A program made the position numbers and the translations under genes. A stretch of DNA of 43,772 nt from Gemmatimonadota bacterium (lineage in GTDB: Bacteria; Gemmatimonadota; Gemmatimonadetes; Gemmatimonadales; GWC2-71-9). This document shows, piece by piece, positions 12,965 through 42,774 of this stretch. The notes beneath the pieces are model-generated. The model was given only the letters and a program-made list of their open reading frames with translations. It made no database searches and was not told the DNA's origin. The stretch covers positions 1 to 43,772 of the forward strand of contig JANMWE010000272.1 in assembly GCA_031393795.1 (NCBI GenBank), read 5' to 3'. Numbering within the stretch: the first letter of the stretch is position 1; every line of letters starts with the position of its first letter.

Positions 12965-13381
12965 ATGCCCGACTTCGATAAACTGATCTCCCGCTACAAG
13001 GGGCTCGACCGGAACACCCGCCTCGAGGCCCTCTTGGACTGGTCGAAGAAGCTCCCCGACCTCCCGGTCGAGCTTCTCCCCCTCAAGGAGCAAGGGGTGG
13101 GATTGGTGCACGAATGCCAGACCCCCGTCTTCCTCTATGTCGAGGTGCCGGACGGCAAGGTGGCGATCCACGCCGATGTGCCGCGCGAATCTCCGACCGT
13201 GCGCGGATTCCTGGCGCTCCTCATCACCCAGCTCAACGGCGCCACCCCCACGGAAGTGGCGGCGACGCCGAACGATCTCCTCGAACAGCTCGGTCTGTCA
13301 CAGGACCTGGGGATGACCCGGACGCAGGGGCTGACAGCCATCCTTGGCAGGATCAAGGCGGCCGTGCGGTCGAAGAGTTAG
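12965..13381 (+). CDS. sufE: SufE-family sulfur acceptor protein
   Basis: 138 aa. Contains the SufE/CsdE layout with the conserved Cys block (LVHECQTPVFLYV) and C-terminal LTAILGRIK. Confidence 0.85.
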   Translation: MPDFDKLISRYKGLDRNTRLEALLDWSKKLPDLPVELLPLKEQGVGLVHECQTPVFLYVEVPDGKVAIHADVPRESPTVRGFLALLITQLNGATPTEVAATPNDLLEQLGLSQDLGMTRTQGLTAILGRIKAAVRSKS

Positions 13382-13453
13382 GAGTTGGGAGTTGGGAGGG
13401 GTGCCGCAAGGAGTTCAGTGCAGCATCCCTTCAAACTCCTGACTCCCAGCTCC
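13381..13453 (+). repeat. HP1: heptad-built hairpin (GGAGTTG units) filling the sufE/rhodanese intergenic gap
   Basis: The left arm GGAGTTGGGAGTTGGGAG (13381-13398) pairs with CTCCTGACTCCCAGCTCC (13436-13453). That is 15 Watson-Crick pairs plus 3 G-U pairs on the + strand RNA; the same 3 positions would be A-C mismatches on the - strand RNA. It abuts both stop codons. Confidence 0.7.
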
Positions 13454-14338
13454 TCACCGCTCGATCGGCACTCCCACGCTGTTTCCCCACTCCGTCCAGC
13501 TCCCATCGTAGTTCCGCACCTTGCCATACCCTAGCAGGTAGGTGAGCGCGAACCAGCTGTGGCTCGAGCGCTCGCCGATGCGGCAGTAGACCACCACGTC
13601 GTCGCCGGCGCGGAGACCTTGCTCCTGCTCATAGAGTGTCTTGAGCTCCGCGGCGGAACGGTAGGTGTGGGTCGCGGGATCGACCGCCTTGGCCCAGGGG
13701 ATGCTCCTGGCGCCGGGGATATGGCCGCCCCGCACCGCCCCTTCGTTGGGGTAGTCGGGCATGTGGAGCCGCTCGCCGCGATACTCCTCGTGGCTCCGCA
13801 CGTCCACCAGCTTCCCCTTCCCCCGCACGTGGGCCTCGACCTCGCTTCGCAGCGCCCGGACCCGCGGATCATTCCGCGGACCGACGGTCACGGTGCCGCT
13901 CCGGGGACCCGTCTTCTCCGTCACCATGGGCCGACCCTCTTCCACCCAGCGCAGCCGCCCCCCGTCGAGCACTTTCACGTTGGGGAGCGCAAAGAGCTGG
14001 AAGACCCAGAAGGCGTACGTGGCCCACCAGTTGTTCTTGTCGCCGTAGAGCACGATGGTGGTGTCAGGGTCCACGCCGGCCGTGCGGAGGAACTGCTGCA
14101 GCGCCTCTCGGCCGACGAAATCCCGCACCACCGGATCGTTCAGGTCATTGAGCCAGTCGATCTTGATCGCGCCTGGGATGTGTCCCGTCTCGTAGAGGAG
14201 GAGGTCTTCGTTGGCCTCGAAGAGCCGGACCTTGGGATCGTTCAGGTGCGCCGCGACCCAGGCGGTGTCGACCAGCACGTCGGGGTGGGCATACCCGCGC
14301 TGCGCGATGGGAGTGACGGGGGGAAGAGTGGCGGACAT
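13454..14338 (-). CDS. Thiosulfate/3-mercaptopyruvate sulfurtransferase (tandem rhodanese domains)
   Basis: 294 aa with two rhodanese domains. Active-site loop is CRIGERSS, with GHIPGA motifs in both halves. SD GAGGAG lies 5 nt upstream of the ATG at 14338. Confidence 0.9.
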
Positions 14339-14353
14339 CCTTGCTCCTCTGGC

Positions 14354-14423
14354 GGCTGGGCGTTGGGTGCTGGGTGCTGGGTGCTGGGTGCTGGGTGCTG
14401 GGTGCTGGATGCTGGGTGCTGGG
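14354..14423. repeat. TR2: about 10 tandem copies of the heptamer TGCTGGG (no inverted partner found)
   Basis: The units run GGCTGGG CGTTGGG TGCTGGG x5 TGCTGGA TGCTGGG x2. The array sits between the divergent rhodanese (start 14338) and PAP2 (start 14485) genes. The G3-N4 periodicity gives a textbook G-quadruplex motif on the + strand. Confidence 0.9.
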
Positions 14424-14484
14424 ATTGAATTACGAGTAAACTAGTCGGATTGTCAACCCGAAGAGGGAGCTATTTTATGGCTTG

Positions 14485-15429
14485 ATGACGGCCCCCTTCT
14501 CCCTGCGCCGCGCACGCTTTTCGTTGTCGCGGGACGCCACCTCGTTGTCGCCCCTCGACCGGCTTACCCTGGTCTATGTGGCGTTCACCACCGGGGTGGT
14601 CATCGCGCATCTCCTGGGCTGGCGGCACGGGGGGCTGCCGCGGCAGCTCGGCGGGACGATGCTCCTCGCCAACGGATTGCTCCTGGTCGCCGCCGCGGTG
14701 GCGCCGCGGGCGCGGTGCGCCAGGTCGCGGGGGTTCATCGCCGAGTGGTACGCGGCGATCGTGCTGATCGGGCTCTATGCCGTGGTGGGACTTCTCAATG
14801 ATCCGACCTCGGGACCGGCGCCTTCGTTCGACCTGGTGGTCCAGGGGTGGGACCTCCGGCTCTTCGGGGAGCAGATCGCCTACACCTGGCCGCGCGCCTG
14901 GCCGAATCACTGGGTGGCCGAGTTCCTTTCGCTCTGCTACCTCTCGTTCTACGCGGTAGGCATCGCCTGTCCGGCGGTCCTCTGGTCCATCGGCCGGAAG
15001 GCGGAGGCGCGCCAGGCGATCTTCGCGCTGCTCCTCACCATGTTCAGCTGCTACGCGATCTTCCTCCTCTTCCCGGTGGCCGGGCCGCCGTACTTCTGGC
15101 CCTGGGCGGAAGGACCGGCCTGGACCGGTCCGTTCGTCCAGGCCGCGCGTCACGTCATCAACCGGGGCGATTCCTGGGGCTCCGCCTTCCCTTCCAGCCA
15201 CGTGGCGGGGGCGGTGGTGGCCTTGGTCTTCGCGTTCAAGGGGTGGCGTCCACTCGGCTGGATCCTGCTGGTCCCCGTGGTGGGGATCCTCGTCGCCGTC
15301 GTGTATCTCCAGATCCACTACGGCATCGACGCGCTGGCGGGGCTCGGGATGGCGGCGCTCGTTGCGGTCATCGCGCCGCGGTTCTGCCCTCTGAACCTGG
15401 CGACGGAGCAGGAGCAGCCGCCGGCATAA
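14485..15429 (+). CDS. PAP2-superfamily integral membrane phosphatase/phosphotransferase
   Basis: Multiple TM segments. PAP2 motifs are SFPSSHVAGA and IHYGIDAL. TATTTT lies 8 nt upstream of the ATG at 14485, with TTGTCA 15 nt further up. Confidence 0.8.
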   Translation: MTAPFSLRRARFSLSRDATSLSPLDRLTLVYVAFTTGVVIAHLLGWRHGGLPRQLGGTMLLANGLLLVAAAVAPRARCARSRGFIAEWYAAIVLIGLYAVVGLLNDPTSGPAPSFDLVVQGWDLRLFGEQIAYTWPRAWPNHWVAEFLSLCYLSFYAVGIACPAVLWSIGRKAEARQAIFALLLTMFSCYAIFLLFPVAGPPYFWPWAEGPAWTGPFVQAARHVINRGDSWGSAFPSSHVAGAVVALVFAFKGWRPLGWILLVPVVGILVAVVYLQIHYGIDALAGLGMAALVAVIAPRFCPLNLATEQEQPPA

Positions 15430-15453
15430 ATCGTTCGGCCACATTAAATGACG

Positions 15454-15513: not shown

Positions 15514-15587
<74 letters not shown>

Positions 15588-15737: not shown

Positions 15738-15944
15738 CTCGTCCTCGCCGAGCGCGACGTCGTCGAGGTCATCCTCGTCGTCATCGTCGTCGTCGTCCTC
15801 GTCCTCATCGTCGTCGTCGAAGAGATCGTCCTCGTCCTCATCCTCGTCGAAATCGTACTCGCCATCTTCGAACTCGTTGCCGTCGTCGTCCAGCGGACGG
15901 CGCCGCAGTTCGATGGTCCCGAGCGACTCCTCCCAGGCGAACAT
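15732..15944 (-). CDS. Highly acidic small protein (about 70 aa, C-terminal two thirds almost entirely Asp/Glu)
   Basis: Lies immediately downstream of typA. The ATG at 15944 is preceded by GGAGGG with a 7-nt spacer; ATG at 15959 is the alternative. Sequence: MFAWEESLGTIELRRRPLDDDGNEFEDGEYDFDEDEDEDDLFDDDDEDEDDDDDDDEDDLDDVALGEDEE. The low-complexity sequence leaves other frames open, so coding is not certain. Confidence 0.5.
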   Translation of the reverse strand: MFAWEESLGTIELRRRPLDDDGNEFEDGEYDFDEDEDEDDLFDDDDEDEDDDDDDDEDDLDDVALGEDEE

Positions 15945-19310: not shown

Positions 19311-20642
19311 ATGGAACCCTCAAGCACGGCCACTACGGGCTCGGTCGGACTCGGACTCCTCTCTGTCGTAGTGCTCGTGGTGGCGAACGCCTTCTTCGTC
19401 GCCGCCGAGTTCGCACTGGTCGGGTCCCGGCGGTCGCGGCTGGAGGAGCTGATCCAGCAGGGCGAACGCAAAGCTATCCTCGCGCGCCGGGCGGTTCAAT
19501 CGCTCGGCCGCTACATCTCTGCCACCCAGCTCGGGATCACCCTGACCTCGCTCGGCCTCGGCTGGAAGGGGGAGCCGGCCCTGGCCAGGGTGGTGAGCGG
19601 GGCGTTCGACTATCTCCCCGAGCTGGTGCGTCCCTGGGCGACACATTTCACGGCCGGGCTGCTCGCGTTCTCGGCGATCTCCCTCCTTCATATCATCCTC
19701 GGCGAGCTCGTCCCCAAGGCGGTCGCGATCATCTATCCCGAGACCGTCGCGATCTGGGCCATCTATCCCCTCACGGGGTTCGTCTGGGTGATGACGGTCC
19801 CCGTGATGTTCCTGAACCGGACCTCGAACGCACTGCTCAACGTGCTCGGCATCAATCCTCCGGGCGAGAGCGAGCGGCTCCACTCTCCCGACGAACTCCG
19901 GATGCTGGTGGGGCAGAGCCAGGAAGGGGGCTCGCTGGACGAGCAGGACGCGCGGCTGCTGGAGGGGGTGTTCGAGTTCGGCGAGAAGACCGCGCAGGAC
20001 GTGATGACGCCGCGCACCCGGATGATCGCGCTCGAGGCCGACTCGAGCGTCCAGCGCGCGGCGGCGGTGATCGCGACCGCGGGGCGGTCACGCTATCCCG
20101 TGTATGCCGACACCCTCGACGACATCGTCGGGGTGGTGCACGCAAAGGCCATCCTCGTGGCCCTGCGCGAGGACCCCACCCGCCTCCTGAAGGATGCGGT
20201 CCGTCCGCCGCTGTTCGTGCCGGGCACGCGCAAGATCGAGGACGTGCTCGCCGACATGAAGCGGCAGCGGACCCACCTCGCGGTGGTCCTCGACGAGTAT
20301 GGCGGCACCGCCGGCCTGGTGACCATGGAGGATCTCCTCGAGGAGATCGTCGGGGACATCGAGGACGAATACGACCGCGCCGACCGCCCCGCGCCCCAGC
20401 CGGATGGTGCGGCCATCCTCGACGGCGGGCTCCCGCTCACCGACCTTCCCGACAAGGCGGGGATCGAGATCGAGGACGAGAACTACACCACCCTCGGCGG
20501 CTACCTCTTCGGGCGGCTCGGACGGCTTCCCAAGCCGGGCGATCAGGTCCTGGTGGCCGACCGGACCTTCGAGATCACCGAGATGGACGGGCGGCGGGTG
20601 AAGAGCGTGCGGTTGCTCCCCCCTGGAGCGAAACACAAGTAA
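19311..20642 (+). CDS. CNNM/CorC-family membrane protein (DUF21 + CBS pair + CorC_HlyC domain)
   Basis: 443 aa. The DUF21 N-terminus has FFVAAEFALV and ATQLGIT. A CBS pair region and a C-terminal transporter-associated domain follow. Confidence 0.9.
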   Translation: MEPSSTATTGSVGLGLLSVVVLVVANAFFVAAEFALVGSRRSRLEELIQQGERKAILARRAVQSLGRYISATQLGITLTSLGLGWKGEPALARVVSGAFDYLPELVRPWATHFTAGLLAFSAISLLHIILGELVPKAVAIIYPETVAIWAIYPLTGFVWVMTVPVMFLNRTSNALLNVLGINPPGESERLHSPDELRMLVGQSQEGGSLDEQDARLLEGVFEFGEKTAQDVMTPRTRMIALEADSSVQRAAAVIATAGRSRYPVYADTLDDIVGVVHAKAILVALREDPTRLLKDAVRPPLFVPGTRKIEDVLADMKRQRTHLAVVLDEYGGTAGLVTMEDLLEEIVGDIEDEYDRADRPAPQPDGAAILDGGLPLTDLPDKAGIEIEDENYTTLGGYLFGRLGRLPKPGDQVLVADRTFEITEMDGRRVKSVRLLPPGAKHK

Positions 20643-30644: not shown

Positions 30645-30846
30645 GAGGAGTTGAGAGCTAAGAGCCGAGAGCCAGGAGCCGAGAGCCGAGAGCCAAGAGC
30701 CAAGAGCGAAGAGCGAAGAGCGAAGAGCTAAGAGCTTGGGGTTCGCGTAGTTACGAGTGTACACCCCACTGGACAGCGGATGGCGACGGCATCCGCTGGT
30801 AAGGCTAAATCCTTTGGCTCTAAGCTCTTAGCTCTTGGCTCTCAAC
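30645..30846. repeat. HP4: 12-13 tandem NRRGAGC heptads (30645-30735) plus a distal inverted arm of about 4.5 units (30815-30845)
   Basis: The units run TGAGAGC TAAGAGC CGAGAGC CAGGAGC CGAGAGC x2 CAAGAGC x2 GAAGAGC x3 TAAGAGC. The partner arm is GGCTCTAAGCTCTTAGCTCTTGGCTCTC. The ~75-nt spacer holds its own 9-bp hairpin (CAGCGGATG...CATCCGCTG, about 30773-30797). Confidence 0.9.
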
Positions 30847-30905
30847 TGGCACGGTGGCTGCACTAGTTCCGGGGGTCTCAACCCGTTGTCTCCACGGAGG
30901 ACACC

Positions 30906-32273
30906 ATGTTCGTCACCCTCGGCTTGATCGCCAGCCTCGGTCTTGGGCTTCCCCCCCGGCCGGTGGACCATCTCCGCCTCTACAGCGACTTGGGCTCTTC
31001 GGGCGGACGTATCTCGATCTGGCTTGATCGGAGCAATCCCTATGCACGCGGGGATCGCGCCCGGGTCTACGTCTCGGCCGACCGCGATTCCTATCTCACC
31101 GTGCTCCGCATCGACACCGACGGCCGGGTACGGGTGCTCTTTCCGCAGGACCCCTGGGACGACAACTATGTGACGGGCGGGCGCACCTTCGAGGTCGAGG
31201 ACCGCGGTGGTGACCGGGCCTTCCGCGTGGATGACGCGCCCGGCGCCGGGTACGTCTTCGCGATCGTGTCGGACGTGAAGTTCGACTACAGCTCGATCCT
31301 GACCCAGCGCGACAACTGGGACTACCGCACCATCGCGGACGGGCAGGTCCGCGGCGACCCGTACGTTGCGGTCACCGACCTGGCGCAGCGCATCGTACCG
31401 ACCGGGGAGTTCGACTATGACCTGGCGCAGTACGACGTGCAGCAGCACTATGACTACCCGCGCTTCGTCTGCTACGATTGTCATGCCTACGCACCCTACT
31501 ACACCTGGAACCCCTACGCGCATTCGTGCGTGCGGTTCCGCGTGGTGATCTACGACGATCCGTACTATTACCCCTACCGCTACTACGGTGGTCGCGGGGT
31601 GGTGGTGGTCCGGCCTCGCCGGCCGCAGCCCCGCTACGTCTTCGTCGACAACAGCGGTGGCAACGACTACGTGACCCGCATCCCCACCCGCCCACGCCGT
31701 GAGGACCAGGGTGGCACCACTGGCGGCGGCACGGGTGGCGGCACCGGTGGCGACCAGATGCGTCCGCGCCGCGGGGAGGATGTCGGGGGCCGTGGCACCA
31801 TCCCGATCCCGGGAGACACCCGACGTCGGATCATAGGCCAGCCCGAGCAGCGGGCCACCGATCCAGGTCAGCAGCCGCCGGAACGTCGGCGGATCGAGCG
31901 GCAGGGCGACAAGCCCGCGATCGGTGAGCCAGGGCGCCGAGACCGCCCGGAGACCCAGCCCAATCCGCCCGGGCTCGAGCCCCAACCGCAGATGAAGCCA
32001 GACCGGCCTCGCCGCGAAGAGCCGTCACGGCAGGACCCGCAGTCTCGACCGGAGCCCCAGCGTCCCCCCGAGCAGCGGCGGGAGGAGCCGAGGCGCCAGG
32101 AGCCGGAATCACGGCCGGAACCGCAGCGCCCGCCGGAACCGCGTGCGGAGCCGCGGGCCGAGCCCCGTGCCGAGCCCCGTGCCGAGCCGAGGCACGAGGA
32201 ACCGCGGCGGCAACCGCCGAGCGGTGGGGGGGGAAGGTCGGGGAGCCCGGAGCTGCGCAGGCGGAGGGGTTGA
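30906..32273 (+). CDS. DUF4384-domain protein with a Tyr-rich middle region and a long Pro/Arg/Glu-rich disordered tail
   Basis: SD GGAGGA lies 5 nt upstream. The DUF4384-like core is RVYVSADRDSYLTVLRIDTDGRVRVLFPQ. The tail has repeats SRPEPQRPPE x2 and (AEPR)4, the latter encoded by 12-bp tandem units at 32145-32192. Confidence 0.75.
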   Translation: MFVTLGLIASLGLGLPPRPVDHLRLYSDLGSSGGRISIWLDRSNPYARGDRARVYVSADRDSYLTVLRIDTDGRVRVLFPQDPWDDNYVTGGRTFEVEDRGGDRAFRVDDAPGAGYVFAIVSDVKFDYSSILTQRDNWDYRTIADGQVRGDPYVAVTDLAQRIVPTGEFDYDLAQYDVQQHYDYPRFVCYDCHAYAPYYTWNPYAHSCVRFRVVIYDDPYYYPYRYYGGRGVVVVRPRRPQPRYVFVDNSGGNDYVTRIPTRPRREDQGGTTGGGTGGGTGGDQMRPRRGEDVGGRGTIPIPGDTRRRIIGQPEQRATDPGQQPPERRRIERQGDKPAIGEPGRRDRPETQPNPPGLEPQPQMKPDRPRREEPSRQDPQSRPEPQRPPEQRREEPRRQEPESRPEPQRPPEPRAEPRAEPRAEPRAEPRHEEPRRQPPSGGGGRSGSPELRRRRG

Positions 32274-32344
32274 GACAAGAGGAGACGGGAGGAGACGGGA
32301 GTGGTCCCCGCCTCCTCTCGTCTCTTTTCGTCTCCTCTCGTCTC
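32272..32344 (+). repeat. HP5: heptad-built hairpin (GGAGACG units) directly after the DUF4384 gene stop
   Basis: The left arm is GAGACAAGAGGAGACGGGAGGAGACGGGAG and the right arm is CCTCCTCTCGTCTCTTTTCGTCTCCTCTCGTCTC. Of the arm mismatches, 4 become G-U and 1 is A-C on the + strand RNA. Confidence 0.7.
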
Positions 32345-32454
32345 ATCCTGTTTCGGCTGCTGAAACATCGTACCGGGGCCCCCCGTACCGTTCACCGGTC
32401 GGGGGGTGTTTACTTGCATCCCCTTCGCTCGTTCACCTAGCCGGGAGTTCTCGC

Positions 32455-34063: not shown

Positions 34064-35602
34064 ATGCGCAACCCTTCCCTCCTCCTGGTCGCCCTGCTCG
34101 GCGCGTGCGGCGGTGGATCGACGTCGATGGCGCCGACACCGGTCGCGCCGGGCGGGGCGACTTCGATCACTGCGACCGATGTGGCGCGCCGCATCGGGAT
34201 CATCGCCGACGACTCGATGCTCGGCCGCGCCACCCCCTCCCACGGGCTCGAGATGACGGCGGGATATGCCGCGGCCGAGTTCCGGCGCCTGGGGCTCCGT
34301 CCTGCCGGTGAGGGCGGGAGCTATCTCCAGCGCTATCCGCTGATCATTTCCCGGTTCGACCCGGCGAAGAGCTGGGTGCGCGCGACCGGCCGCGCGGCGG
34401 CGCAGTGGCAGGTGGGACCTGACCTCCCGCTTATGCAGGGGGAGCCGAGCGGCGACGTGACGGGAGCGGGCCTCGTCCTCTTGGTGGGGGACAGCTCCCA
34501 AGGCGTCATGATCCCTCCGGGAGCCGTGACCGGGAAGATCGTGGTCGTCGTCTTCGGCCCGGCGGTCGACGGGATCGCGGGTGCGCTGGTCCAGCAGAAG
34601 CCCGCGGGGGTGTTCCTCGTCGCTGCGATGCCGGATGGGATGTGGTCGAAGATGCCGGGGAAGACAGCGTCGATCCGGGTGGTGAACCCCGCCGAAGGAG
34701 GGCTGGCCATCCCGCCGGTGTTCGCCGTCCGGCGCGGGGCGTTCACGCCCTGGCTGGCGAGGGCGGGGGTGGATACCACGATGCTGGACGCCCACGGACC
34801 GATGCACATCGTCCCGGCGCCGGGCGTGGCCGTCGACTTCCACGTCGATCAGCAGCGCGTGTCGGACGAGTCGGCGCCGAACGTGATGGGGGTGCTCGAA
34901 GGGAGCGACCCGACCCTCAAGAACGAGTACGTCCTCTTCTCAGGGCACATGGATCACATCGGCACCCCCGGTTCGGGCGAGGGGTGCAGCGCCCTCGGCG
35001 GCGACTCCATCTGCAACGGTGCCGACGACGACGGCTCCGGGAGCGTCACCGTGCTCGAGTTGGCCGAGGCGTTCGCGACGGCGCCGGTCCGGCCGAAGCG
35101 GTCGGTGGCGTTCCTGCTGGTGAGCGGCGAGGAGCGCGGTCTCTGGGGGAGCGGGTACTGGGCGGGGCACCCGACGCTGCCGATCGCGAACGTCGTGGCC
35201 GACCTCAACATCGACATGGTGGGGCGGAACGCCCCGGACACCCTCTCCGTGATCGGCCGGGAGCATTCCGATCTCTCGGCCACGCTCGACCAGGTGGCGG
35301 CCCGGCACCCGGAGCTCGGGTTGCACGCGATGGGGGACCTCTGGCCGAGCGAGGGGCTCTATTTCCGGAGCGACCACTTCAACTTCGCGCGGAAGGGGAT
35401 CCCGATCCTTTTCTTCACCACCGGACTCCACCCGCAGTATCACGCCGTGACCGACGAGCCGTCGCTGATCGACAACGACAAGGCGGCGCGGATCGGGCGG
35501 CTGATCTATTACCTGGGCGAAACGATCGCGAACACGCCGGCGCGGCCGGCGTGGGACCCGGCGAGTCGGACGCGCATCGTCGAGTCCGCCCCGGCGCCGT
35601 AG
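34064..35602 (+). CDS. M28-family aminopeptidase with PA insert, lipoprotein (paralogue of 32455-34005)
   Basis: ATG at 34064. Lipobox LLGAC|GG. The M28 motifs are the same as in the paralogue (FSGHMDHIG, NGADDDGSGS, SGEERGLWGS, SDHFNFARKGIPILFF). Confidence 0.85.
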   Translation: MRNPSLLLVALLGACGGGSTSMAPTPVAPGGATSITATDVARRIGIIADDSMLGRATPSHGLEMTAGYAAAEFRRLGLRPAGEGGSYLQRYPLIISRFDPAKSWVRATGRAAAQWQVGPDLPLMQGEPSGDVTGAGLVLLVGDSSQGVMIPPGAVTGKIVVVVFGPAVDGIAGALVQQKPAGVFLVAAMPDGMWSKMPGKTASIRVVNPAEGGLAIPPVFAVRRGAFTPWLARAGVDTTMLDAHGPMHIVPAPGVAVDFHVDQQRVSDESAPNVMGVLEGSDPTLKNEYVLFSGHMDHIGTPGSGEGCSALGGDSICNGADDDGSGSVTVLELAEAFATAPVRPKRSVAFLLVSGEERGLWGSGYWAGHPTLPIANVVADLNIDMVGRNAPDTLSVIGREHSDLSATLDQVAARHPELGLHAMGDLWPSEGLYFRSDHFNFARKGIPILFFTTGLHPQYHAVTDEPSLIDNDKAARIGRLIYYLGETIANTPARPAWDPASRTRIVESAPAP

Positions 35603-35608
35603 ACGAAT

Positions 35609-35714
35609 GTGCGAAGTCCGAAGTCCGAAGTGCGAGGTGCGGGGTTATTGTTGGGGAGTTTCTCCCACACCCCGGACTTCGCACCTCGCACCTCGCACCT
35701 CGCACCTCGCACCC
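35609..35714 (+). repeat. HP6: heptad-built hairpin (GTSCGAR units) between the M28 and CMD genes; same family as HP10
   Basis: The left arm is GTGCGAA GTCCGAA GTCCGAA GTGCGAG GTGCGGG. The right arm is CCCCGGAC TTCGCAC CTCGCAC x4. The loop holds a small GGGGAG/CTCCC hairpin. Confidence 0.75.
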
Positions 35715-35723: not shown

Positions 35724-36077
35724 ATGACCCAGACCATCGACGAATGGAACGCCTTCCGCGCGAAGATGAACGACCGGATCTTCGCCGCCGGGAACCTGCC
35801 GATCAATCGCTTTTTCCGGCTCGACGGCCAGGCGTACGAGGCCGGGGCGCTCGGCGAGAAGACCAAGGAACTGATGGGACTCGTCGCATCGCTGGTGCTG
35901 CGGTGTGACGACTGCGTGACCTATCACATCCTCGAGGCCATCAAGCAGGAGGCGACCGACGAGGAGCTGCTCGAGACCTTCGCCATCGGGCTGATCGTCG
36001 GGGGGAGCATCGTGATCCCGCATCTCCGGCGGGCGATGGAGCGGGTGGACGAGGCGCGGGGGCGGGCTGGCGTGTAG
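35724..36077 (+). CDS. Carboxymuconolactone decarboxylase (AhpD-like) family protein
   Basis: 117 aa. AhpD-like helical fold signature with CxxC (LRCDDCVTYH). SD GAAGGA is present. Confidence 0.8.
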   Translation: MTQTIDEWNAFRAKMNDRIFAAGNLPINRFFRLDGQAYEAGALGEKTKELMGLVASLVLRCDDCVTYHILEAIKQEATDEELLETFAIGLIVGGSIVIPHLRRAMERVDEARGRAGV

Positions 36078-36078
36078 C

Positions 36079-36196
36079 TGCAGGGGCGCAGGGGCGCGCA
36101 GGCGCACTGGCGGCTGGGTCGGAGCGAAGACGGGACCGTCCCGAGTGACGCGAGGGACGGTCCCCCGCTGTTCCTGCGCCCACGCGCCTCTGCGCC
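36079..36196 (+). repeat. HP7: nested hairpin built from 8-nt units (GCAGGGGC / NNTGCGCC) around an inner GGGACCGTCCC/GGGACGGTCCC stem
   Basis: The outer arms are TGCAGGGGCGCAGGGGCGCGCAGGCGCA (36079-36106) and TGCGCCCACGCGCCTCTGCGCC (36175-36196). The inner stem is 36132-36142 / 36154-36164. Confidence 0.6.
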
Positions 36197-36204
36197 TATC
36201 CGCC

Positions 36205-36210
36205 TATATT
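36205..36210 (+). promoter_or_regulatory. -10-like TATATT box 7 nt upstream of the lepA ATG (candidate leaderless promoter)
   Basis: Reads TATATTTGCCCCCATG with no SD. Confidence 0.3.
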
Positions 36211-36217
36211 TGCCCCC

Positions 36218-38020
36218 ATGCGTCAGTCCCGTATCCGTAATTTCTGCATCGTTGCGCACATCGACCACGGCAAGTCCACGCTCGCCGACCGGCTCATCGA
36301 GATGACCGGCACGGTCGAGAAGCGCATCATGCGCGAGCAGATGCTCGACACGATGGACCTCGAGCGCGAGCGCGGGATCACCATCAAGCTCAATGCTGTC
36401 CGCATGCTCTACAAGGCGCTGGACGGCCACCAGTATGAGCTGAACCTGATCGACACCCCCGGCCACGTCGACTTCACCTACGAAGTGAGCCGCTCCCTTG
36501 CCGCGTGCGAAGGGGCGATCCTGGTGGTCGACGCCACCCAGGGGATCCAGGCCCAGACGCTCTCGAACCTCTTCCTGGCGATGGACGCGGGGCTCGAGAT
36601 CATCCCGGTGCTCAACAAGATCGACCTCCCCGGCGCCGAGCCGGAGAAGCGGGCCCTGGAGATCATCGACCTGATCGGCTCCACCCGCGCCGAGATCCTG
36701 TCGGTGAGCGCCAAGGAGGGGACCGGCGTCCCCGCGCTGCTCGAGGAGATCGTCAAGCGCGTCCCCACCCCGCGCGGCAGCCACGACGCGCCGCTCCGCG
36801 CCCTCATCTTCGACTCCTATTTCGACCGGTACCGGGGGGCGATCCCGAGCATTCGGGTGGTCGACGGTGTGCTCAAGCCGAAGATGAAGATCGCCTTCGG
36901 GGCCCACCCGGAGGACATCTACACCGTCGAGGAGGTCGGCTACCTCTCGATGGGGCAGAAACCCGCGACGAAGCTCGAGGCGGGCGAAGTGGGCTATGTC
37001 GTGGCCAACTGCCGGGGCGTGGGCGACACCCGGGCGGGCGATACGATCTTCGACGCCGACCACCGTGCCACGGAACTGCTGCCGGGCTACCGGAACGTCA
37101 TGCCCATGGTGTTCGCGGGGCTCTATCCCACGGACGCGGCCCAGTACGAACAGCTCCGGGATGCCCTGGAGAAACTCAAGCTCAATGACGCATCGCTCCA
37201 ATACGAGGCCGAGACCTCGACCGCCCTCGGCTTCGGCTTCCGGGCGGGGTTCCTTGGGCTGCTGCATATGGAGATCATCGTCGAGAGGCTGGAACGGGAG
37301 TTCGACCTCGACCTGATCGCGACGGTCCCGACGGTGGAGTACCATGTCTTCACCACCGCCGGAACGATGGAAAAGGTGGAGAACCCGTCACACCTCCCGG
37401 ACCCGGGCCACATCGAGCGGATCGACGAACCCTACGTCAAGAGCCGGATCATGGCGCCCGCGGAGTACATCGGGCCGATCATGAAGCTCGGCGGCGACCG
37501 CCGCGGCATCTACAACGGCATGAAGTACCTCGACACCGTACGGGTGGAGTTCGACTGGGAGTTCCCGCTGGGCGAGATCGTGCTCGACTTCTACGACAAG
37601 CTCAAGTCGGCCACGCGCGGCTATGCGTCGTTCGACTATGAGCATGCCGGGTATCGCACCAGCGACCTGGTGAAGCTCGACATGCTGATCAACAACGAGG
37701 CGCTCGACGCCTTCAGCGTGATCATCCACAAGGACAAGGCGTACGAGTACGGCCGGAAGGTGGCCGAGAAGTTGAAGGAGCTGATCCCGCGCCAGCTCTT
37801 CGTGGTGGCGATCCAGGCCGCCATCGGCCAGAAGGTCATCGCCCGCGAGACGATCAGCGCGCTCCGGAAGGACGTGCTCGCCAAGTGTTACGGCGGCGAC
37901 GTGAGCCGGAAGCGGAAGCTCCTGGAGAAGCAGAAGGAAGGAAAGAAGCGGATGAAGCAGATCGGGAGCGTGGAGATCCCGCAGGAGGCGTTCCTGGCGG
38001 TGCTGCAGGTGGACGACTGA
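36218..38020 (+). CDS. lepA: Elongation factor 4 (LepA)
   Basis: 600 aa. Contains [28 protein letters not shown] and NKIDLP, plus the LepA-specific C-terminal domain ([34 protein letters not shown]). Confidence 0.97.
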
Positions 38021-38028
38021 AAGCGAAC

Positions 38029-38099
38029 AGGCGCTCGAGGCGCTCAAGGCGCTCGGGTGCTGCGACACTACTTGAGCGTCTTGAGCGTCTGGAGCGCCT
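38029..38099 (+). repeat. HP8: hairpin built from 9-nt units (AGGCGCTCR x3 / CTTGAGCGT-type x3) between lepA and the heptosyltransferase gene
   Basis: 29-nt arms give 24 Watson-Crick pairs, 4 G-U pairs and 1 mismatch on the + strand RNA. The 4 G-U positions would be C-A on the - strand RNA. The right arm contains the GGAG 5 nt upstream of the TTG start at 38100. Confidence 0.75.
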
Positions 38100-39110
38100 T
38101 TGAACTCCACACTCGTGATCCAGACCGCCTTCCTCGGCGACGTGGTCCTCACGATCCCGTTGCTGCAGGCCCTGGCCGAACGCCACGGCCCGGTGGACGT
38201 CGTCACCACTCCGGCGGCAGCGAGCCTGATCGAGACCCACCCCGCGGTGCGGCGGGTGGTGCAGTGGGATAAGAACGGAACGAACGGGCCTGGGGCCTGG
38301 GGCCTGGGGAGGCAGCTCAGGTCTCAGGGGTACACCCGCGTATACCTGCCTCACCGATCGTTCCGGTCGGCGCTGATCGCCAGGCTCACCGGCGCGCCGG
38401 AGCGGGTCGGCTTCGCCGACGCCCCCCTCCCCGCCCGCTTCCTCTATACCCGCACCCACCCGCGCCGAACCGACCAGCACGAGAGTGTCCGGCTCCTGGC
38501 CCTCCTCGGCGATACGGTGGCGGGCGGCGATTGGCGGATGGTCACCACGCCCGAGGACGACGCGAAGGCCACGAGCTGGCTCCGCGAGCGGGGTGTGGCC
38601 GACGGCTTCGTGGCCCTCGCGCCAGGGTCGATCTGGGGCACGAAGAAGTGGCCATACTACTCGGAGCTCTCGGCCCGGCTCGGTCGTCAGGTCGTGGTGA
38701 TCGGCGGGAAGGAAGACGCGACCCTCGGCGATGCGATCGTGGCCGCGGCCCCGGACCAGGCGAAGAGCGCGGTGGGTCAACTGACGCTCCGAGAGAGCGC
38801 GGCACTCCTCAAGCACGCCGCGCTCCTCGTGACCAACGACTCGGCCCCGCTCCACCTCGCCACTGCCGTGGGGACGCCGATCCTGGCGATCTTCGGGCCG
38901 ACGGTCCCGGCGTTCGGTTATGGCCCAATCCGCCCCGGTGATCGGGTGGCCGAGATCGTGCTCGATTGCCGCCCCTGCTCTTCCCACGGTCCACAGGTCT
39001 GTCCGCTCGGTCATCATCGGTGCATGAAGGCCCAGTCGGCCGATGACGTGGCGAAGGTCGCGGCCTCGATGCTGGATCGGGATACTCCACGGAGGGACGG
39101 AGGGGACTGA
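38100..39110 (+). CDS. GT9-family ADP-heptose:LPS heptosyltransferase (WaaF/WaaC-like)
   Basis: 336 aa. The N-terminus is LVIQTAFLGDVVLTIPLL. Also has GSIWGTKKWP and NDSAPLHLATAVGTPILAIFGPT. The TTG start is tentative. Confidence 0.85.
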   Translation: MNSTLVIQTAFLGDVVLTIPLLQALAERHGPVDVVTTPAAASLIETHPAVRRVVQWDKNGTNGPGAWGLGRQLRSQGYTRVYLPHRSFRSALIARLTGAPERVGFADAPLPARFLYTRTHPRRTDQHESVRLLALLGDTVAGGDWRMVTTPEDDAKATSWLRERGVADGFVALAPGSIWGTKKWPYYSELSARLGRQVVVIGGKEDATLGDAIVAAAPDQAKSAVGQLTLRESAALLKHAALLVTNDSAPLHLATAVGTPILAIFGPTVPAFGYGPIRPGDRVAEIVLDCRPCSSHGPQVCPLGHHRCMKAQSADDVAKVAASMLDRDTPRRDGGD

Positions 39111-39168
39111 GGTACGGAGAAAGCCGTTATGTTTGTTCGGTCACTCAGTTCCCTCCGTCCCTCAGTGG
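39087..39168 (+). repeat. HP9: hairpin (GGAGGGAC-type units) overlapping the 3' end of the heptosyltransferase gene
   Basis: The 20-bp stem pairs GAGGGACGGAGGGGACTGAG (39092-39111) with CTCAGTTCCCTCCGTCCCTC (39144-39163). The single mismatch is a G-U pair on the + strand RNA. An outer CCAC/GTGG extension is present. Confidence 0.75.
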
Positions 39169-39213
39169 CGATCCCCGATCTCCCCGCACGCGCGACCTGA
39201 CGAGGCCATTGCG

Positions 39214-40197
39214 TTGAACCACATCGTTGGCATCGACCTGGGCGGGACCAACATCGCCGTGGGCTGCGTCTCGGAGGACGGGACCAAGGTCCGCGGCCTG
39301 GTGAGCGAGCCCACGCGCTCCGACCTGGGCCCCGACGGCGTGGTGCAGCGGATGGTGCAGACGGCGGAACGGTCGATGCAGATGCTGCAGGCCGAGGAGA
39401 AGGGCGCCCAGGTGGTCGGCGTCGGCATCGGCGCGCCCGGCCCGCTCGATTTCCATCGCGGTGTCGTCCTGCTCGCGCCGAACCTGGGGTGGACGGACAT
39501 GCCGCTCCGCGACCGGATCTCCGCGGGGCTCAAGCGGCCTGCCGCGCTCGACAACGACGCCAACTGCGCCGCCCTCGGCGAATGGTGGCAGGGCGCCGCG
39601 AAGGGGACCTCGCACGCGCTCGCCGTCACCATCGGGACGGGGATCGGTGGCGGAGTGATCCTCAACGGCAAGATCTACCACGGCGCCTCCGACTGCGCGG
39701 GCGAGCTGGGACACACCACCATCGACATGGATGGTCGGCGCTGCGCCTGCGGCAACTACGGCTGCCTCGAGGCGTACGCGTCGGGGCCCGCCATCGCCCT
39801 CCGGGCCGCGGAGGCGCTGAGCTCGGGGTATGAGTCATCACTCCGCACCCGGGTGAAGGGCGATCTCTCGAAGATCACCGCGCAGACCGTGTACGACGCG
39901 GCGGCCGAGGGGGACGAGCTCGCGCTCGAGGTCGTGCGCGACACTGCGAGCTACCTCGGCGCCGGGATCGCGAACTTCCTGAACATCTTCAATCCCGAGG
40001 TCGTGGTCGTCTGCGGTGGGGTGACCGCCGCGGGCGAGCGGCTCTTCGGCCCGATGCAGCGCGAGGTGGCGCGGCGGGCGTTCAAGCCGGCGGTGGCGGC
40101 ATGCCGGATCGTGCCGGGGATGTTGCCGGGCACCGCCGGTGTGATCGGGGCGGCGCGGACCTACCTCGACCAGAAGGCGGAGGGGCTCGTTGCCTAA
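39214..40197 (+). CDS. glk: ROK-family glucokinase
   Basis: The N-terminus is GIDLGGTNIAVG. The ROK zinc motif CACGNYGCLEAYASG is present. The TTG start at 39214 is tentative. The track start at 39043 overlaps the previous gene and is rejected. Confidence 0.85.
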   Translation: MNHIVGIDLGGTNIAVGCVSEDGTKVRGLVSEPTRSDLGPDGVVQRMVQTAERSMQMLQAEEKGAQVVGVGIGAPGPLDFHRGVVLLAPNLGWTDMPLRDRISAGLKRPAALDNDANCAALGEWWQGAAKGTSHALAVTIGTGIGGGVILNGKIYHGASDCAGELGHTTIDMDGRRCACGNYGCLEAYASGPAIALRAAEALSSGYESSLRTRVKGDLSKITAQTVYDAAAEGDELALEVVRDTASYLGAGIANFLNIFNPEVVVVCGGVTAAGERLFGPMQREVARRAFKPAVAACRIVPGMLPGTAGVIGAARTYLDQKAEGLVA

Positions 40198-41191
40198 GAT
40201 CGGCGTCCTCGGCGCCCTCGTGTGGGACGTGATCCACGGCCGCGACCCGGCGCAGGGGGTCGTGGAGGAGTGGGGCGGGATCGCCTACTCGCTCGCGGCG
40301 ATGGACGCGGCGCTGCCCGAGGATTGGGAGATCGTCCCCCTCATCAAGGTGGGACACGACCGGGCGCGGCAGGCGGCGGAGTTCGCGTGCACGCTCGATC
40401 ACTTCCCGGCCCACGCCCGCTTCATCGAAGTGCCGGTGGCCAACAACATGGTGGAGCTCCGCTACCAGTCGGCCGAGCGGCGCTGCGAGCGGATGGCGGG
40501 GGGGGTGCCAGGGTGGAACTGGGCCGAGCTCGGGCCGATGGTGCAGGACCTCGACGCGCTGTACGTGAACTTCATCAGCGGGTTCGAGATGTGCCGCTGG
40601 ACCGCGAAGAACCTGCGCCAGGGGTTCCACGGCCCGATCTATGCCGACCTCCATTCCCTCTTCCTCGGGATGCGGGGCGACGGCGTGCGCACGCTGCAGC
40701 CCCTCGCTGACATCGGCGAGTGGTTCTCCTGCTTCGATACGGTGCAGCTCAACGAAGAAGAGATGCGGACCCTGGGCGATGACCCGATGGCGCTCTCGGC
40801 CGAGATGTTGCGCGCCGGGGTCACCCTGCTCAACGTCACGCTCGGTGCCAAGGGGGTGGCCTACATCCACGCTCCCGGCAATGAGGTCCGAAGTCCGAGG
40901 TCCAAGGTCCGAGGTGCAGAGACGCAGGCACCCGGGCGACCCGCACTTCGCACTTCGGACTTCGGACATTCCACGATCCGAAGCGCACGCATCGCCCCGC
41001 CTCCCGTCGAGGCCACCGACACCACCGGCTGCGGCGACGTCTTCGGCGCCACTTGTGCGGCGCGGCTCGCGGCCGGGGACAGCGTGGAGGAGGCGCTCCA
41101 ACGCGCCAACCAGGCCGCGGCGCGGAGTGCGACCCATCGCGGGGCCACCAGCCTGGCCGCGTATCTCAAAGGTGGATTGGTGACGGCGTGA
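40190..41191 (+). CDS. PfkB-family carbohydrate kinase carrying an in-frame repeat-derived insertion
   Basis: The TTG at 40190 is preceded by GGCGGAGGGG and overlaps the glk stop. The PfkB signature DTTGCGDVFGA lies near the C-terminus. About 35 residues (NEVRSPRSKVRGAETQAPGRPALRTSDFGHSTIRSA) between TLGAKGVAYIHAPG and RIAPPPVEATDTTG are encoded by HP10. Confidence 0.8.
   Translation: MPKIGVLGALVWDVIHGRDPAQGVVEEWGGIAYSLAAMDAALPEDWEIVPLIKVGHDRARQAAEFACTLDHFPAHARFIEVPVANNMVELRYQSAERRCERMAGGVPGWNWAELGPMVQDLDALYVNFISGFEMCRWTAKNLRQGFHGPIYADLHSLFLGMRGDGVRTLQPLADIGEWFSCFDTVQLNEEEMRTLGDDPMALSAEMLRAGVTLLNVTLGAKGVAYIHAPGNEVRSPRSKVRGAETQAPGRPALRTSDFGHSTIRSARIAPPPVEATDTTGCGDVFGATCAARLAAGDSVEEALQRANQAAARSATHRGATSLAAYLKGGLVTA
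40883..40967. repeat. HP10: heptad-built hairpin (GAGGTCC/GAAGTCC units and complement) inside the PfkB CDS
   Basis: The left arm is GAGGTCC GAAGTCC GAGGTCC AAGGTCC GAGGTGC. The right arm is GCACTTC GCACTTC GGACTTC GGAC. The reverse complement of 40939-40967 matches 35616-35644 of HP6 at 27 of 29 positions. Confidence 0.8.
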
Positions 41192-42111
41192 CGCGGGTCG
41201 TGGAGGTCCCGGCCAGCTTCGACGACCGCACGTTCGAGCAGTTCGCGGCGTCGGTCGCCGCGGGGCCGCTCACCGACAAGATGCTCTTCGACGCGCGGGG
41301 GGCGCAGTGGGCCTCGCCCTACGCCTTCGTCTCGATGCTGGCCGTGGCGCAGGCGATCCTCGACGCCAAGGGACCCAAGCCCCTCTTCACCGCCCCGGAA
41401 GACGCCAACGTGGCGAGTTACTGGGCCAAGGCGGGCTTCTTCGCGCAGGCGGTGGACCTCTTCGAGATCCACGGCAAGGTGCCGAAGCGGAAGGCCGAGG
41501 AGGAGAGCCATATGCTCCTCCCGGTGACCGCGATCCGCGCGTCGGAGGATGTGCACGAAGTGGTGGACCGCATCCACCAGAAGGCGGCGGTGCTCCTCAC
41601 GAAAGAGCTCGGACTGGAAGCTCGCGCCACCATGGGGTTCGCGACCGCGCTCTCCGAGGCGTGCCAGAACGTGGTCGAGCACGCTGGTGCGGTGGGCTGG
41701 GTGGGCGTCCACGCCTACAGTTATCGGAAGCGGCTCGGCAAGCGGGTAGTGGTGATCGCGGTCGGGGACGGCGGAGTGGGGTTCCGGCGCTCCCTGGAGC
41801 CGACGCAGGCCAAGCGGATCGGCGACCGGTGGGGCGATGGCGCGGCACTCGAGTGTGCCCTCATCCAGGGGATCAGCCGGTTCCGCGATCCGGGACGAGG
41901 ACAAGGTCTGCAGGGCATAAAGCGTTATCTTGCGCGCTGGGATGGGAAGATCTCCATCCGGAGCGGCGGCGCGAAGCTGGCCATCGTGCCGTCGTGGGAC
42001 GACGAAGCACCCCTGCAGGAACGCCTCCCCGTATTCCCCGGAGCCCAGGTGCAGATCACGATCCCAGCGCAGGCGGACGGGCGGGCAGGTGGACAGGCGG
42101 ACAAAGCCTGA
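41188..42111 (+). CDS. GHKL-type (histidine-kinase-like / anti-sigma-factor-like) ATPase with an uncharacterised N-terminal domain
   Basis: GTG at 41188 overlaps the PfkB stop (GTGA). N box is EACQNVVEHAG, G1 is VGDGGVGF and G2 is GRGQGLQGI. No DHp/HisKA region is seen. Confidence 0.7.
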   Translation: MTRVVEVPASFDDRTFEQFAASVAAGPLTDKMLFDARGAQWASPYAFVSMLAVAQAILDAKGPKPLFTAPEDANVASYWAKAGFFAQAVDLFEIHGKVPKRKAEEESHMLLPVTAIRASEDVHEVVDRIHQKAAVLLTKELGLEARATMGFATALSEACQNVVEHAGAVGWVGVHAYSYRKRLGKRVVVIAVGDGGVGFRRSLEPTQAKRIGDRWGDGAALECALIQGISRFRDPGRGQGLQGIKRYLARWDGKISIRSGGAKLAIVPSWDDEAPLQERLPVFPGAQVQITIPAQADGRAGGQADKA

Positions 42112-42662
42112 TGGTCACGACGATCGCCCTGGGTGAGCTGGTGGCCGAGGCAGTGCCGGGGCGGAGTGTGCGCTCACTCGTCACTCGCCCGACCGGGCAG
42201 GCGGTGCGGCTCCGGATCGAGGCGGCACTCGCGGGGTCGGGGGCGACGGTGGCGTTCCTCGACTTCTCGGCCCTCGACCTGATCGACTTCTCCTGCGCCG
42301 ACGAGGTGGTGGCCAAGCTCCTGATCCATACCGGCCCCACCCCCGAGCGGTACCTCGTTCTCGTCGGCCTGCACGACCACCAGGACGAAGAGATCGACCA
42401 CGTCCTCACCCGGCGGAACCTCGCGGTCCTCGCCTTCAAGGACAGCGCCTCCCGTCCGCGTCTCCTCGGCAACGTGCGGGCCGAGCATCGGCTGGTCTTC
42501 GATGCCCTGGTCGATCACGGCGGCCCCGGCGATGCGCAGACCCTCGCCATCCGGCTCGGCCGTTCGGTGGACCTGGTGGCCGACGCGCTGCAGGCGCTGG
42601 CGCTGCACGGCGTGGTGTGGGCGACGGCGGGGACGTACCAGCCGCTGGTATACACCGCGTAG
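42111..42662 (+). CDS. STAS-like (DUF4325-like) protein with a C-terminal winged-helix-like region
   Basis: ATG at 42111 overlaps the upstream stop (TGATG). The block RPTGQAVR..IE.....G..V.LDFS.L.LIDFSCADEVV.KLL resembles the DUF4325/SpoIIAA-like pattern. The track start at 41307 is an over-extension. Confidence 0.6.
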   Translation: MVTTIALGELVAEAVPGRSVRSLVTRPTGQAVRLRIEAALAGSGATVAFLDFSALDLIDFSCADEVVAKLLIHTGPTPERYLVLVGLHDHQDEEIDHVLTRRNLAVLAFKDSASRPRLLGNVRAEHRLVFDALVDHGGPGDAQTLAIRLGRSVDLVADALQALALHGVVWATAGTYQPLVYTA

Positions 42663-42774
42663 AGGGTCGAGTGCCAGCATCGAGTGGGCGAGAAAGCGGG
42701 TGAGCGCGAAAGCTGCTGATCCGCCTTTGTGCTTTCTCGCTCGCTCGCCAGCTCGCCCCTTGCACTCCACCCTC
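42663..42774. repeat. PAL-A2: 112-bp imperfect palindrome, homologue of PAL-A1
   Basis: The left arm is GAGGGTCGAGTGCCAGCATCGAGTGGGCGAGAAAGCGGGTGAGCGCGAAAGC. The reverse complement of the right arm is GAGGGTGGAGTGCAAGGGGCGAGCTGGCGAGCGAGCGAGAAAGC. It shares GAGTGCAAGGGGCGAG and TGAGCGCGAAAG with PAL-A1. It starts right after the stop at 42662. Confidence 0.7.

Follow-up and report, generated by a model that had tools for sequence, protein, structure and literature searches.

Hairpin-forming tandem arrays at gene boundaries in Gemmatimonadales, probably shaped by slippage

Knowledge of heptamer repeats goes back decades for cyanobacteria and to 2015 for Xanthomonas, and there is no agreement on their function or origin. 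Sequences called short tandemly repeated repetitive (STRR), with 7-bp units able to form a hairpin, are no rarity in filamentous cyanobacteria, the hupS-hupL spacer being a cited case, and transcript stability or translational coupling has been suggested as their role (PMC2670836). The gene for RNase P RNA is also reported to contain STRRs (Vioque 1997). In Xanthomonas, each genome carries 183-186 G-rich arrays of GGGAATC, including 70-75 cases of two arrays in convergent orientation; 89-93% of the arrays are intergenic, at an average of 28 nt from the upstream open reading frame (ORF), between a given pair of genes their length varies widely from one close species to another, and a function was not identified (PMC4692102). 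Here, elements of this kind are described in a stretch of 43,772 nucleotides with a G+C content of ~69%, referred to as the window, from a Gemmatimonadota bacterium (GenBank assembly GCA_031393795.1, contig JANMWE010000272.1, positions 1 to 43,772).

The elements are read, with moderate confidence, as hairpin-forming palindromic microsatellites that are driven by slippage and tolerated at gene boundaries. They were shown to persist where they are harmless, at intergenic junctions, in N- or C-terminal tails and in an in-frame surface loop of a protein. The original prediction, made from the window alone, had presented them as a class with no described counterpart. This does not hold, since STRR hairpins (PMC2670836) and convergent GGGAATC arrays (PMC4692102) share the design. 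The design is therefore known, and little studied; the form found in Gemmatimonadales differs in its variety of units and, to judge from the descriptions found, in its in-frame copies and its turnover.

Architecture of the elements and their occurrence in relatives

The original prediction had listed ten loci that share one architecture without sharing sequence. All ten are present, Tandem Repeats Finder having located arrays at every one, and nine hairpins of the window fold with z scores of -5.6 to -9.7 relative to dinucleotide shuffles. An inverted-repeat search paired the arms of HP4, HP5, HP6, HP8, HP9 and HP10 over 26-44 nt with 80-88% complementarity. The 43 kb hold at least seven units that are unrelated to one another, their periods being 7, 8, 9 and 10. 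The list was incomplete, as the elements at 20638-20757, 42070-42103 and 42663-42774 had been missed, and HP5 proved to have a period of 10 (GAGGAGACGG), not 7. The elements are as follows; array coordinates are those of Tandem Repeats Finder.

13375..13453, HP1: 5' arm GAGTTAG/GAGTTGG x3, 3' arm AACTCC/GACTCCC; array 13375-13398, period 7; fills the convergent SufE/rhodanese spacer; fold -50.3 kcal/mol, z -7.6
14354..14423, TR2: (TGCTGGG) x10, G-rich on the + strand; array 14355-14423, period 7, 9.9 copies; a lone array without a complementary arm, in a divergent spacer 16 nt from the rhodanese start codon
20638..20757, weakly periodic, nested, G-first hairpin from the inverted-repeat search; fills the convergent CNNM/PdxA spacer; fold -83.3 kcal/mol, z -9.7
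30645..30847, HP4: 5' arm of ~12 RAGAGCN units, 3' arm of 4 AGCTCTN units; arrays 30654-30735 (period 7, 11.7 copies) and 30817-30842; unique 80-nt core with a small hairpin of its own; between the divergent starts of DUF58 (-) and the DUF4384 gene (+); z -6.3
32268..32348, HP5: period-10 arms GAGGAGACGG / CTCCTCTCGT; z -7.3
35604..35714, HP6: 5' arm GTSCGAR x5, 3' arm CYTCGCA x6; arrays 35604-35641 and 35668-35713, period 7; begins 2 nt past the M28 peptidase stop and ends 10 nt short of the CMD start; z -6.6, the minus strand being the more stable
36079..36207, HP7: imperfect 8-mer arms GCAGGGGC / CTGCGCCN around an inner hairpin; arrays 36080-36097 and 36175-36207, period 8; z -6.4
38029..38100, HP8: 9-mer arms AGGCGCTCR x3 / CTTGAGCGT x3; arrays 38029-38055 and 38071-38100, period 9; fills the lepA/GT9 spacer; z -9.0
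39075..39180, HP9: 8-9-mer arms ACGGAGGG / CCCTCCGT, 44 nt each; array 39089-39119, period 8-9; z -7.9
40883..40967, HP10: arms GTCCGAR x4 / CTTCGSA x4; arrays 40883-40915 and 40942-40967, period 7; in frame in the PfkB-family ORF (40190-41191); z -5.6
42070..42103, lone G-rich 8-mer array, CAGGCGGA x4: C-terminal tail of the HATPase_c ORF, directly preceding its stop and a TGATG overlap
42663..42774, G-first hairpin with partly periodic arms: 1 nt past a stop codon, upstream of the DUF1003 gene; fold -69.1 kcal/mol, z -6.75; 42774 is also the last coordinate of the original prediction

By context, 6 of 10 window elements follow stop codons, 2 lie in divergent spacers and 1 lies within an ORF. 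The claim that the elements typically begin 0-8 nt from a stop codon thus stands for six of the ten loci and fails for HP4 and TR2, which lie between divergent starts, and for HP10. Where the stop codon had been said to come before the hairpin, it can also be part of it: the SufE stop codon TAG (13379-13381) falls in the first unit of the HP1 5' arm, the first arm of HP5 takes in the TGA of the upstream gene, and the GT9 stop codon TGA (39108-39110) lies within the HP9 5' arm. The window has ~24 spacers of at least 40 nt; periodic elements occupy ~10 of these and ordinary hairpins occur in others.

Relatives were surveyed in 1.34 Mb around lepA from 80 related Gemmatimonadales genomes (the lepA set). 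The best 80 lepA loci all came from Gemmatimonadales, and the window LepA protein is 94-96% identical to LepA of two Gemmatimonadales metagenome-assembled genomes (MAGs). A reverse-complement partner within 250 nt was found for 78 of 173 arrays of period 7, 85 of 166 of period 8 and 21 of 148 of period 9, and for 1 of 118 and 2 of 53 arrays of periods 6 and 12. The paired arrays merged to 104 elements, and many elements in relatives lie 0-10 nt from both neighbouring genes. Periods 7 and 8 predominate; 8-mer units are restricted to one lepA clade and 7-mers occur in other clades.

When 185,579 species genomes were scanned for (GCGGGGCA)x3, at least 120 stretches were returned, ~90% of them from Gemmatimonadales with several per genome, and these loci, unrelated to those around lepA, yielded 68 further paired elements. 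The (GGGAATC)x3 loci (L281-L360; L numbers denote sampled loci and contigs) gave 71 paired elements from Xanthomonadales, filamentous cyanobacteria, Gemmatimonadaceae and others. BipA neighbourhoods were rejected as a second orthologous set, synteny being absent for HP1 and TR2. They were used instead as a control across phyla, and 0.98 Mb from other phyla held 15 elements, mainly in Acidobacteriota and also in Thermoanaerobaculia and Nitrospirota. The identical (GGGAATC)x3 was also seen in Acidobacteriota, Planctomycetota, Vibrio and a Thermoplasmata archaeon MAG, in contrast to (GCGGGGCA)x3, which is almost restricted to Gemmatimonadales.

The objection that the arrays are assembly artefacts was ruled out, because dozens of independent assemblies, some with contigs as long as 1-3 Mb, contain such elements, and because the elements vary in exact unit steps. 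Runs of N stand exactly at the positions of HP4, HP6 and HP8 in the scaffolds L401, L408 and L409, and contig L416 ends within TR2; the arrays do break short-read assemblies.

Gain and loss of units, concerted change and turnover

Contigs of other metagenomes in which the CMD or SufE protein is identical to that of the window, and lepA 99.7-99.9% identical, were used as a set of strains. The HP4 spacer measured 278, 299, 306, 313 or 320 nt, with every change in the long 5' arm; the HP6 spacer measured 120, 127, 134 or 141 nt, with both arms varying independently; and the TR2 spacer measured 114 or 121 nt, strain contig L411 being one unit short. Steps in multiples of 7 nt among strains so closely related show slippage directly, and arrays gain and lose whole units in this way at strain-level time scales. 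Replication slippage had been one of the processes considered in the original prediction. Only long arrays varied. Arrays of up to three units (HP1, HP5 and HP9) were constant in length, as was HP10, and HP1 was identical in 7 strain-level contigs. In the short arrays, strains differed by point changes only, and these made adjacent units more alike.

Unit variants were shown to be homogenised within and between arms, so that both arms change in concert. HP4 is built of GAGAGCC/GGCTCT in the window and of GAGAGTY/AACTCT in L001, and each of the four units of the 3' arm has its counterpart in the other genome; a single substitution has thus reached every unit of both arms. The units of HP10 were homogenised in strains L406 and L410. 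At HP9, a G-to-T change in L401-L404 makes two adjacent units identical and creates an earlier in-frame TGA (window 39099-39110), so the array places the GT9 stop codon differently among strains.

Over longer distances, the arrays themselves are replaced. Three states of the HP5 site were found in genomes ~88-91% identical: the window has arms of the GGAGACG type, L002 has GGTAGGAAG arms, and L001 keeps a remnant only. Any one site is filled patchily, in 4-16 of 37 genomes. For the HP7 site, upstream of lepA, the number is 16 of the 37, with 14 distinct units and periods of 7, 8 and 9, which bears out the claim that the architecture recurs while its sequence changes. A homologous core upstream of lepA, GCGCTAAAGAGTAATCAC, carries different arm units in different genomes; this loop motif stands at about 9915-9935 in L033 and at the same site in L036, L039, L054 and L041. 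The turnover of arms around a fixed core argues against the insertion of whole mobile elements.

Other changes were seen beside the arrays. The HP7 loop has a 39-nt indel, the window being without the inner hairpin GGGACCTGC...GCAGGTCCC (36140-36165) that is present in all ten contigs L401-L410; the deletion in the window lies between GGGAC direct repeats. The lepA/GT9 spacer reads wholly differently in 8 of 10 near-identical strains, as does the adjoining GT9 start (window 38021-38160 compared with L401-L404, L406, L407 and L410). Judged from these sequences, allelic replacement by recombination is likely at lepA/GT9, with a breakpoint at or beside the hairpin. Downstream of lepA in L001 (about 11865-11990), and also in L003 and L004, a palindromic element GTCATCCCGAGCAGAGCGAGGGATC ... 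GATCCCTCGCTCCGCTCGGGATGAC resembling a miniature inverted-repeat transposable element (MITE) is inserted in the place expected for the 3' arm of the HP8-site hairpin and leaves a lone array, (GAGGCGCGT) x6.

The possibility was considered that the elements are non-autonomous mobile elements of the MITE or repetitive extragenic palindrome (REP/REPIN) type, copied by a transposase such as the REP-associated Y1 enzyme, each unit family being a mobile lineage. Unit types are indeed common to the loci of one genome far more than to different genomes, a unit being shared by 21.5% of same-genome, different-site pairs and by 4.0% of pairs between genomes. Furthermore, there are several (GCGGGGCA)x3 copies per genome, and HP10 shares its unit with HP6, at a distance of 5 kb, and lies in frame in a gene like the Rickettsia palindromic elements (RPEs). 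However, loops and flanks are unrelated among copies with the same unit, the arms, unlike REPs, are not palindromic in themselves, the architecture spans many phyla, and the core upstream of lepA is fixed while its arm units differ. In the flanks inspected by eye, neither terminal inverted repeats nor target-site duplications were noticed, no systematic search having been made. When 4.4 Mb of sampled DNA was searched by tblastn with an IS200 transposase query, one Y1-transposase-like ORF was found, at 5188-5664 of the Gemmatimonadales locus L113, and it was not flanked by arrays. Mobility was therefore judged very unlikely. The L113 protein is Y1 (HUH) transposase-like, has DHIHLYL and YIRNQ motifs and is 27% identical to IS200 TnpA.

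Genomic context, polarity and effects on transcripts

The gene map was drawn from an ORF choice based on G+C at third codon positions (GC3), from Pfam and from gene calls on strain-level contigs. The genes that bear on the elements are:

12965-13381, +, SufE
13454-14338, -, rhodanese
14482-15429, +, PAP2
15514-15587, -, tRNA gene (74 bits in Rfam), within the long PAP2/BipA spacer
29721-30626, -, DUF58
about 30918-32273, +, DUF4384 gene
32455-34005, +, M28 peptidase 1
34064-35602, +, M28 peptidase 2
35724-36077, +, CMD
36218-38020, +, lepA
38100-39110, +, GT9 heptosyltransferase
about 39216-40197, +, ROK
40190-41191, +, PfkB kinase

The tRNA gene was the sole match in an Rfam scan of the window; CGT/TCCTCG repeats at 15758-15848, within a small acidic ORF, adjoin it. 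Apart from the periodic hairpins there is a conserved-sequence family, a REP-like hairpin GAGAACGGGGGAG...CTCCCCCRTTCC in two adjacent spacers (10953-11006 and 11890-11925), placed at 10962 and 11896, with 3 matches vs 0.24 expected. The region upstream of the first M28 peptidase gene (32375-32455) is kept in the window, L001 and L002 and holds a small C-first hairpin, CCCCCGTACCGTTCACCGGTCGGGGGG, plus TTTACTTGCATCCCC; its role may be that of a promoter or of an element in the 5' leader.

No hairpin-plus-T-run site was found at any element in a scan of 28-43.8 kb, which gave 3 such sites, all within genes, vs 4.0 expected. A scan for canonical terminators and promoters likewise placed none at the elements, and the sequences of the window elements have no U tract after the stem, as had been predicted. 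One GCGGGGCA-armed element in a relative (L138, about 3060-3125) has in its loop a canonical minus-strand terminator, GGGCCGAAAC...GTTCCGGCCC followed by TTTTTT; U-tract terminators therefore do occur in Gemmatimonadales.

The elements have a marked polarity that had not been recognised in the original prediction. The 5' arm is purine/G-rich and the 3' arm pyrimidine/C-rich in 98 of the 104 elements of the lepA set (6 are C-first), in 64 of 68 elements of the (GCGGGGCA)x3 loci (2 C-first, 2 neutral) and in 54 of 71 of the (GGGAATC)x3 loci (5 pyrimidine-first, 12 neutral); among Gemmatimonadales elements, ~95% are purine-first. Because this polarity reads alike on both strands, it is intrinsic to the element. 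Restated around genes, the sense strand is G-rich after stop codons and C-rich before start codons, and of the arrays that directly follow stops and have no detected partner, those with a G-rich sense strand lead by 61 to 18. Non-periodic intergenic inverted repeats were G-first in 43 cases and C-first in 23 on the crude GC3-based gene calls; a split of inverted repeats into coding and intergenic was discarded as unreliable, since these calls run across elements.

The same preference around genes was stated for Xanthomonas and Nostoc by Rehm et al. (PMC4692102), and purine-first inverted arrays were also found in Moorena, Microcoleus and Nostoc loci. An anti-Rho account of the polarity is weakened, because the polarity holds in the cyanobacterial loci too and cyanobacteria lack Rho (PMC12642595). 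Telomerase-like addition at two 3' ends has no support as a cause and fits badly with loops conserved at orthologous sites. A broader rule, under which convergent purine-first arrays flank ORFs in Gemmatimonadota, Acidobacteriota, Nitrospirota, Xanthomonadales and cyanobacteria and point to one unrecognised general mechanism, was regarded as distinctly unlikely. Two candidates for such a mechanism would be U-tract-independent bidirectional transcription insulators that invade a weak pyrimidine-RNA:DNA hybrid, and a repeat building directed to ORF boundaries, its period of 7 vs 8 nt being set by a lineage-specific enzyme.

The polarity also bears on whether the elements act as terminators without U tracts, a role put forward in the original prediction. 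They would then be bidirectional terminators, attenuators or mRNA 3'-end protectors with a long stem that folds in any register, the purine-rich 5' arm stripping the pyrimidine-rich 3' arm, held by a weak RNA:DNA hybrid, from the template. The stems are very stable (up to -100 kcal/mol), six of the ten window loci begin 0-8 nt from a stop codon or contain one, and a polarity that is the same on both strands mirrors the A-tract...U-tract arrangement of bidirectional intrinsic terminators. In lower-GC relatives (L232 and L228) T5 runs occur in the units of the 3' arm, and a -10-like box of lepA comes directly after HP7. Against this stand the missing U tracts, the canonical terminator in the loop of one element, the patchy presence at each site, and the often marked inequality of the arms, which in HP4 have 12 and 4 units.

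The contexts of the elements argue in the same direction. HP4 and TR2 lie between divergent starts. In L034 and L048, lepA and GT9 join in an ATGA overlap with translational coupling, where a new promoter would have no space, and L075, L078 and L080 lack a spacer. In L018, L022 and L041, reading frames show a G-rich array in frame as an N-terminal extension of GT9. HP10 codes for a loop insertion directly before the DTTGCGD motif of the PfkB-family kinase; in a protein alignment this insertion ranges from 0 to ~70 aa across genomes and is built from different units. Co-oriented, convergent and divergent spacers held 43, 14 and 8 elements vs 40.5, 12.4 and 12.1 expected (p = 0.41). This background-like spread, the absence of the lepA/GT9 spacer in several genomes and the in-frame PfkB insert argue against an obligatory terminator role, and termination, attenuation or 3'-end protection as the reason for the elements was judged unlikely.

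The sequence TATATT-N7-ATG of lepA stands directly 3' of HP7. The box TATATT (or TATCTT), then 5-7 nt and the lepA ATG, is kept in the window (36205-36220) and in relatives (about 9985-10003 in L001-L004, L033, L036 and L054). From its sequence, it looks like the -10 box of a leaderless or near-leaderless transcript; the corresponding -35 position would be within the HP7 3' arm.

Selection on an RNA structure had been proposed because 12 of 14 arm mismatches in HP1, HP5, HP8 and HP9 become G-U pairs on the strand of the upstream gene. With an unbiased arm alignment, the G-U:A-C ratio was 17:4 for these four and 36:19 for all window elements (p = 0.03), which is in the same direction. Outside the window, however, it was 130:126 for 61 co-oriented elements of relatives and, relative to the sense strand, 92:107 for 43 unrelated elements. 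Given these balanced counts, the asymmetry was rejected as proof of RNA selection. In the window, moreover, the bias follows the + strand, with divergent and convergent spacers included, and so fits a local mutational skew as well as selection. Of 97 elements, 59 fold better as the sense strand (vs 38; p = 0.04), with a mean difference of ~1 kcal/mol, and this slight advantage is a further point in favour of termination. It is at most a weak effect, and a coding-strand C-to-T mutation bias would also yield it.

The general lack of a wobble strand bias would fit a role at the level of duplex DNA, in which the elements are arrays of protein-binding sites (for a nucleoid protein, gyrase or a regulator) or formers of cruciforms or G-quadruplexes, symmetric around promoters and gene ends. 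Inverted symmetry and a 7-nt unit, three of which make two helical turns, would suit dimeric DNA binders, and TGCTGGG, GCGGGGCA and GGGAATC can form G-quadruplexes, the last of them in vitro (PMC4692102). However, with at least seven unrelated units in the 43-kb window and their fast turnover between close relatives, many binders would have to co-evolve, the number of copies is unconstrained and unequal between arms, and G runs are missing from most units. A DNA-level role was thus considered scarcely probable, and the G-quadruplex was rejected as a general account. The literature on intrastrand triplexes (BoxC/PIT) was not relevant.

In the favoured account of palindromic microsatellites, an element consists of two convergent tandem arrays of a 7-10-nt unit that flank a unique core at a gene boundary. 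Arm complementarity would be kept mainly by templated correction between the arms of the quasi-palindrome, with a contribution from weak selection on stem stability, and unit types would spread among loci via ectopic conversion between arrays. The spacers themselves may exist largely because elements grew there. The purine-first polarity would reflect a filter that acts on RNA or on transcription. This may be because the RNA:DNA hybrid of a pyrimidine-rich 3' arm would be weak and open to invasion by the hairpin, an argument based on what is generally known of hybrid stability. Hybrid invasion would plausibly make the elements mild insulators, active both ways, and any effect on transcript ends or stability would be a by-product or secondary use, not the cause of the elements.

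Several points weigh against this account. Slippage and arm-to-arm correction alone leave the ~95% purine-first polarity unexplained, and they likewise do not explain the 7-8-nt period or the limitation of 8-mers to one clade. The sense-strand folding advantage, at most a weak effect, means that some RNA-level selection is possible. The route of unit spread between loci is one that we infer, and the recurrent filling of the same spacers in many genomes could also mean function. Finally, the unit counts rest on metagenome assemblies, which are sometimes broken at arrays (N gaps).

Comparison with known systems

REP, BIME (bacterial interspersed mosaic element) and REPIN sequences are extragenic palindromes found at gene ends and in operons; they are species-specific and abundant and can stabilise upstream mRNA. 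REPs are conserved imperfect palindromes of 20-40 nt moved by REP-associated tyrosine transposases (RAYTs), whereas the arms in the window are non-palindromic tandem arrays in which only the unit is common to copies. The conserved palindrome of REPs and REPINs is therefore lacking, and no RAYT association was found in the 4.4 Mb sampled with the IS200 query. Nor is there the shared internal sequence of MITEs or RPEs, the core upstream of lepA being combined with different arms. HP10 resembles an RPE as a palindromic insert that a conserved enzyme carries, in frame, in one of its surface loops. RPEs keep their sequence, in contrast to the PfkB insert, which varies in unit, length and presence as an array expanding in situ would. 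I-shaped terminators, described in high-G+C genomes and without a U tract, resemble the elements in having GC-rich stems after stop codons; the window arms differ in being periodic, the stems are far longer and the sites include non-terminator contexts, and terminator activity here is a prediction only. The arrays also have practical consequences: metagenome assemblies break at them, ORF callers are misled by them in high-G+C genomes, and they make protein tails and loops variable.

The STRRs of the RNase P RNA gene reportedly lie in a helix. With the STRRs of the hupS-hupL and hoxW regions, the elements share tandem 7-bp units, an intergenic position, hairpin formation and the lack of an agreed function (PMC2670836). 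A tandem unit of ~7 nt, a position near ORF ends, convergent stem-forming arrays and length variation in relatives were all found here. Cyanobacteria have few genome-wide heptamers, whereas the window has at least seven units and periods of 7, 8, 9 and 10, its genome is 69% G+C, and 8-mers dominate one Gemmatimonadales clade. No description of STRRs was found that combines them with in-frame gene copies or with positional conservation plus unit turnover.

The convergent-array architecture of Xanthomonas was confirmed in the Xanthomonadales loci. Xanthomonas has one dominant unit, read as a G-quadruplex former; the window has at least seven units, and in the loci sampled units are shared far more within than between genomes. 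Most Gemmatimonadales units have no G runs. In the window, regular G3 tracts occur only in TR2, (GGGTGCT)n, and there is none in GAGAGCC, GTCCGAA or AGGCGCTCG. Rehm et al. (2015) did not treat the arrays as a hairpin class or give polarity statistics or strain-level unit polymorphism (PMC4692102). The near-universal purine-first polarity across phyla is a testable constraint for any explanation. Beside the cyanobacterial and Xanthomonas repeats, Gemmatimonadales are a rich natural experiment, with many unit families and periods per genome, some copies translated in frame, the same spacers holding different units across genomes, and unit number polymorphic between strains.

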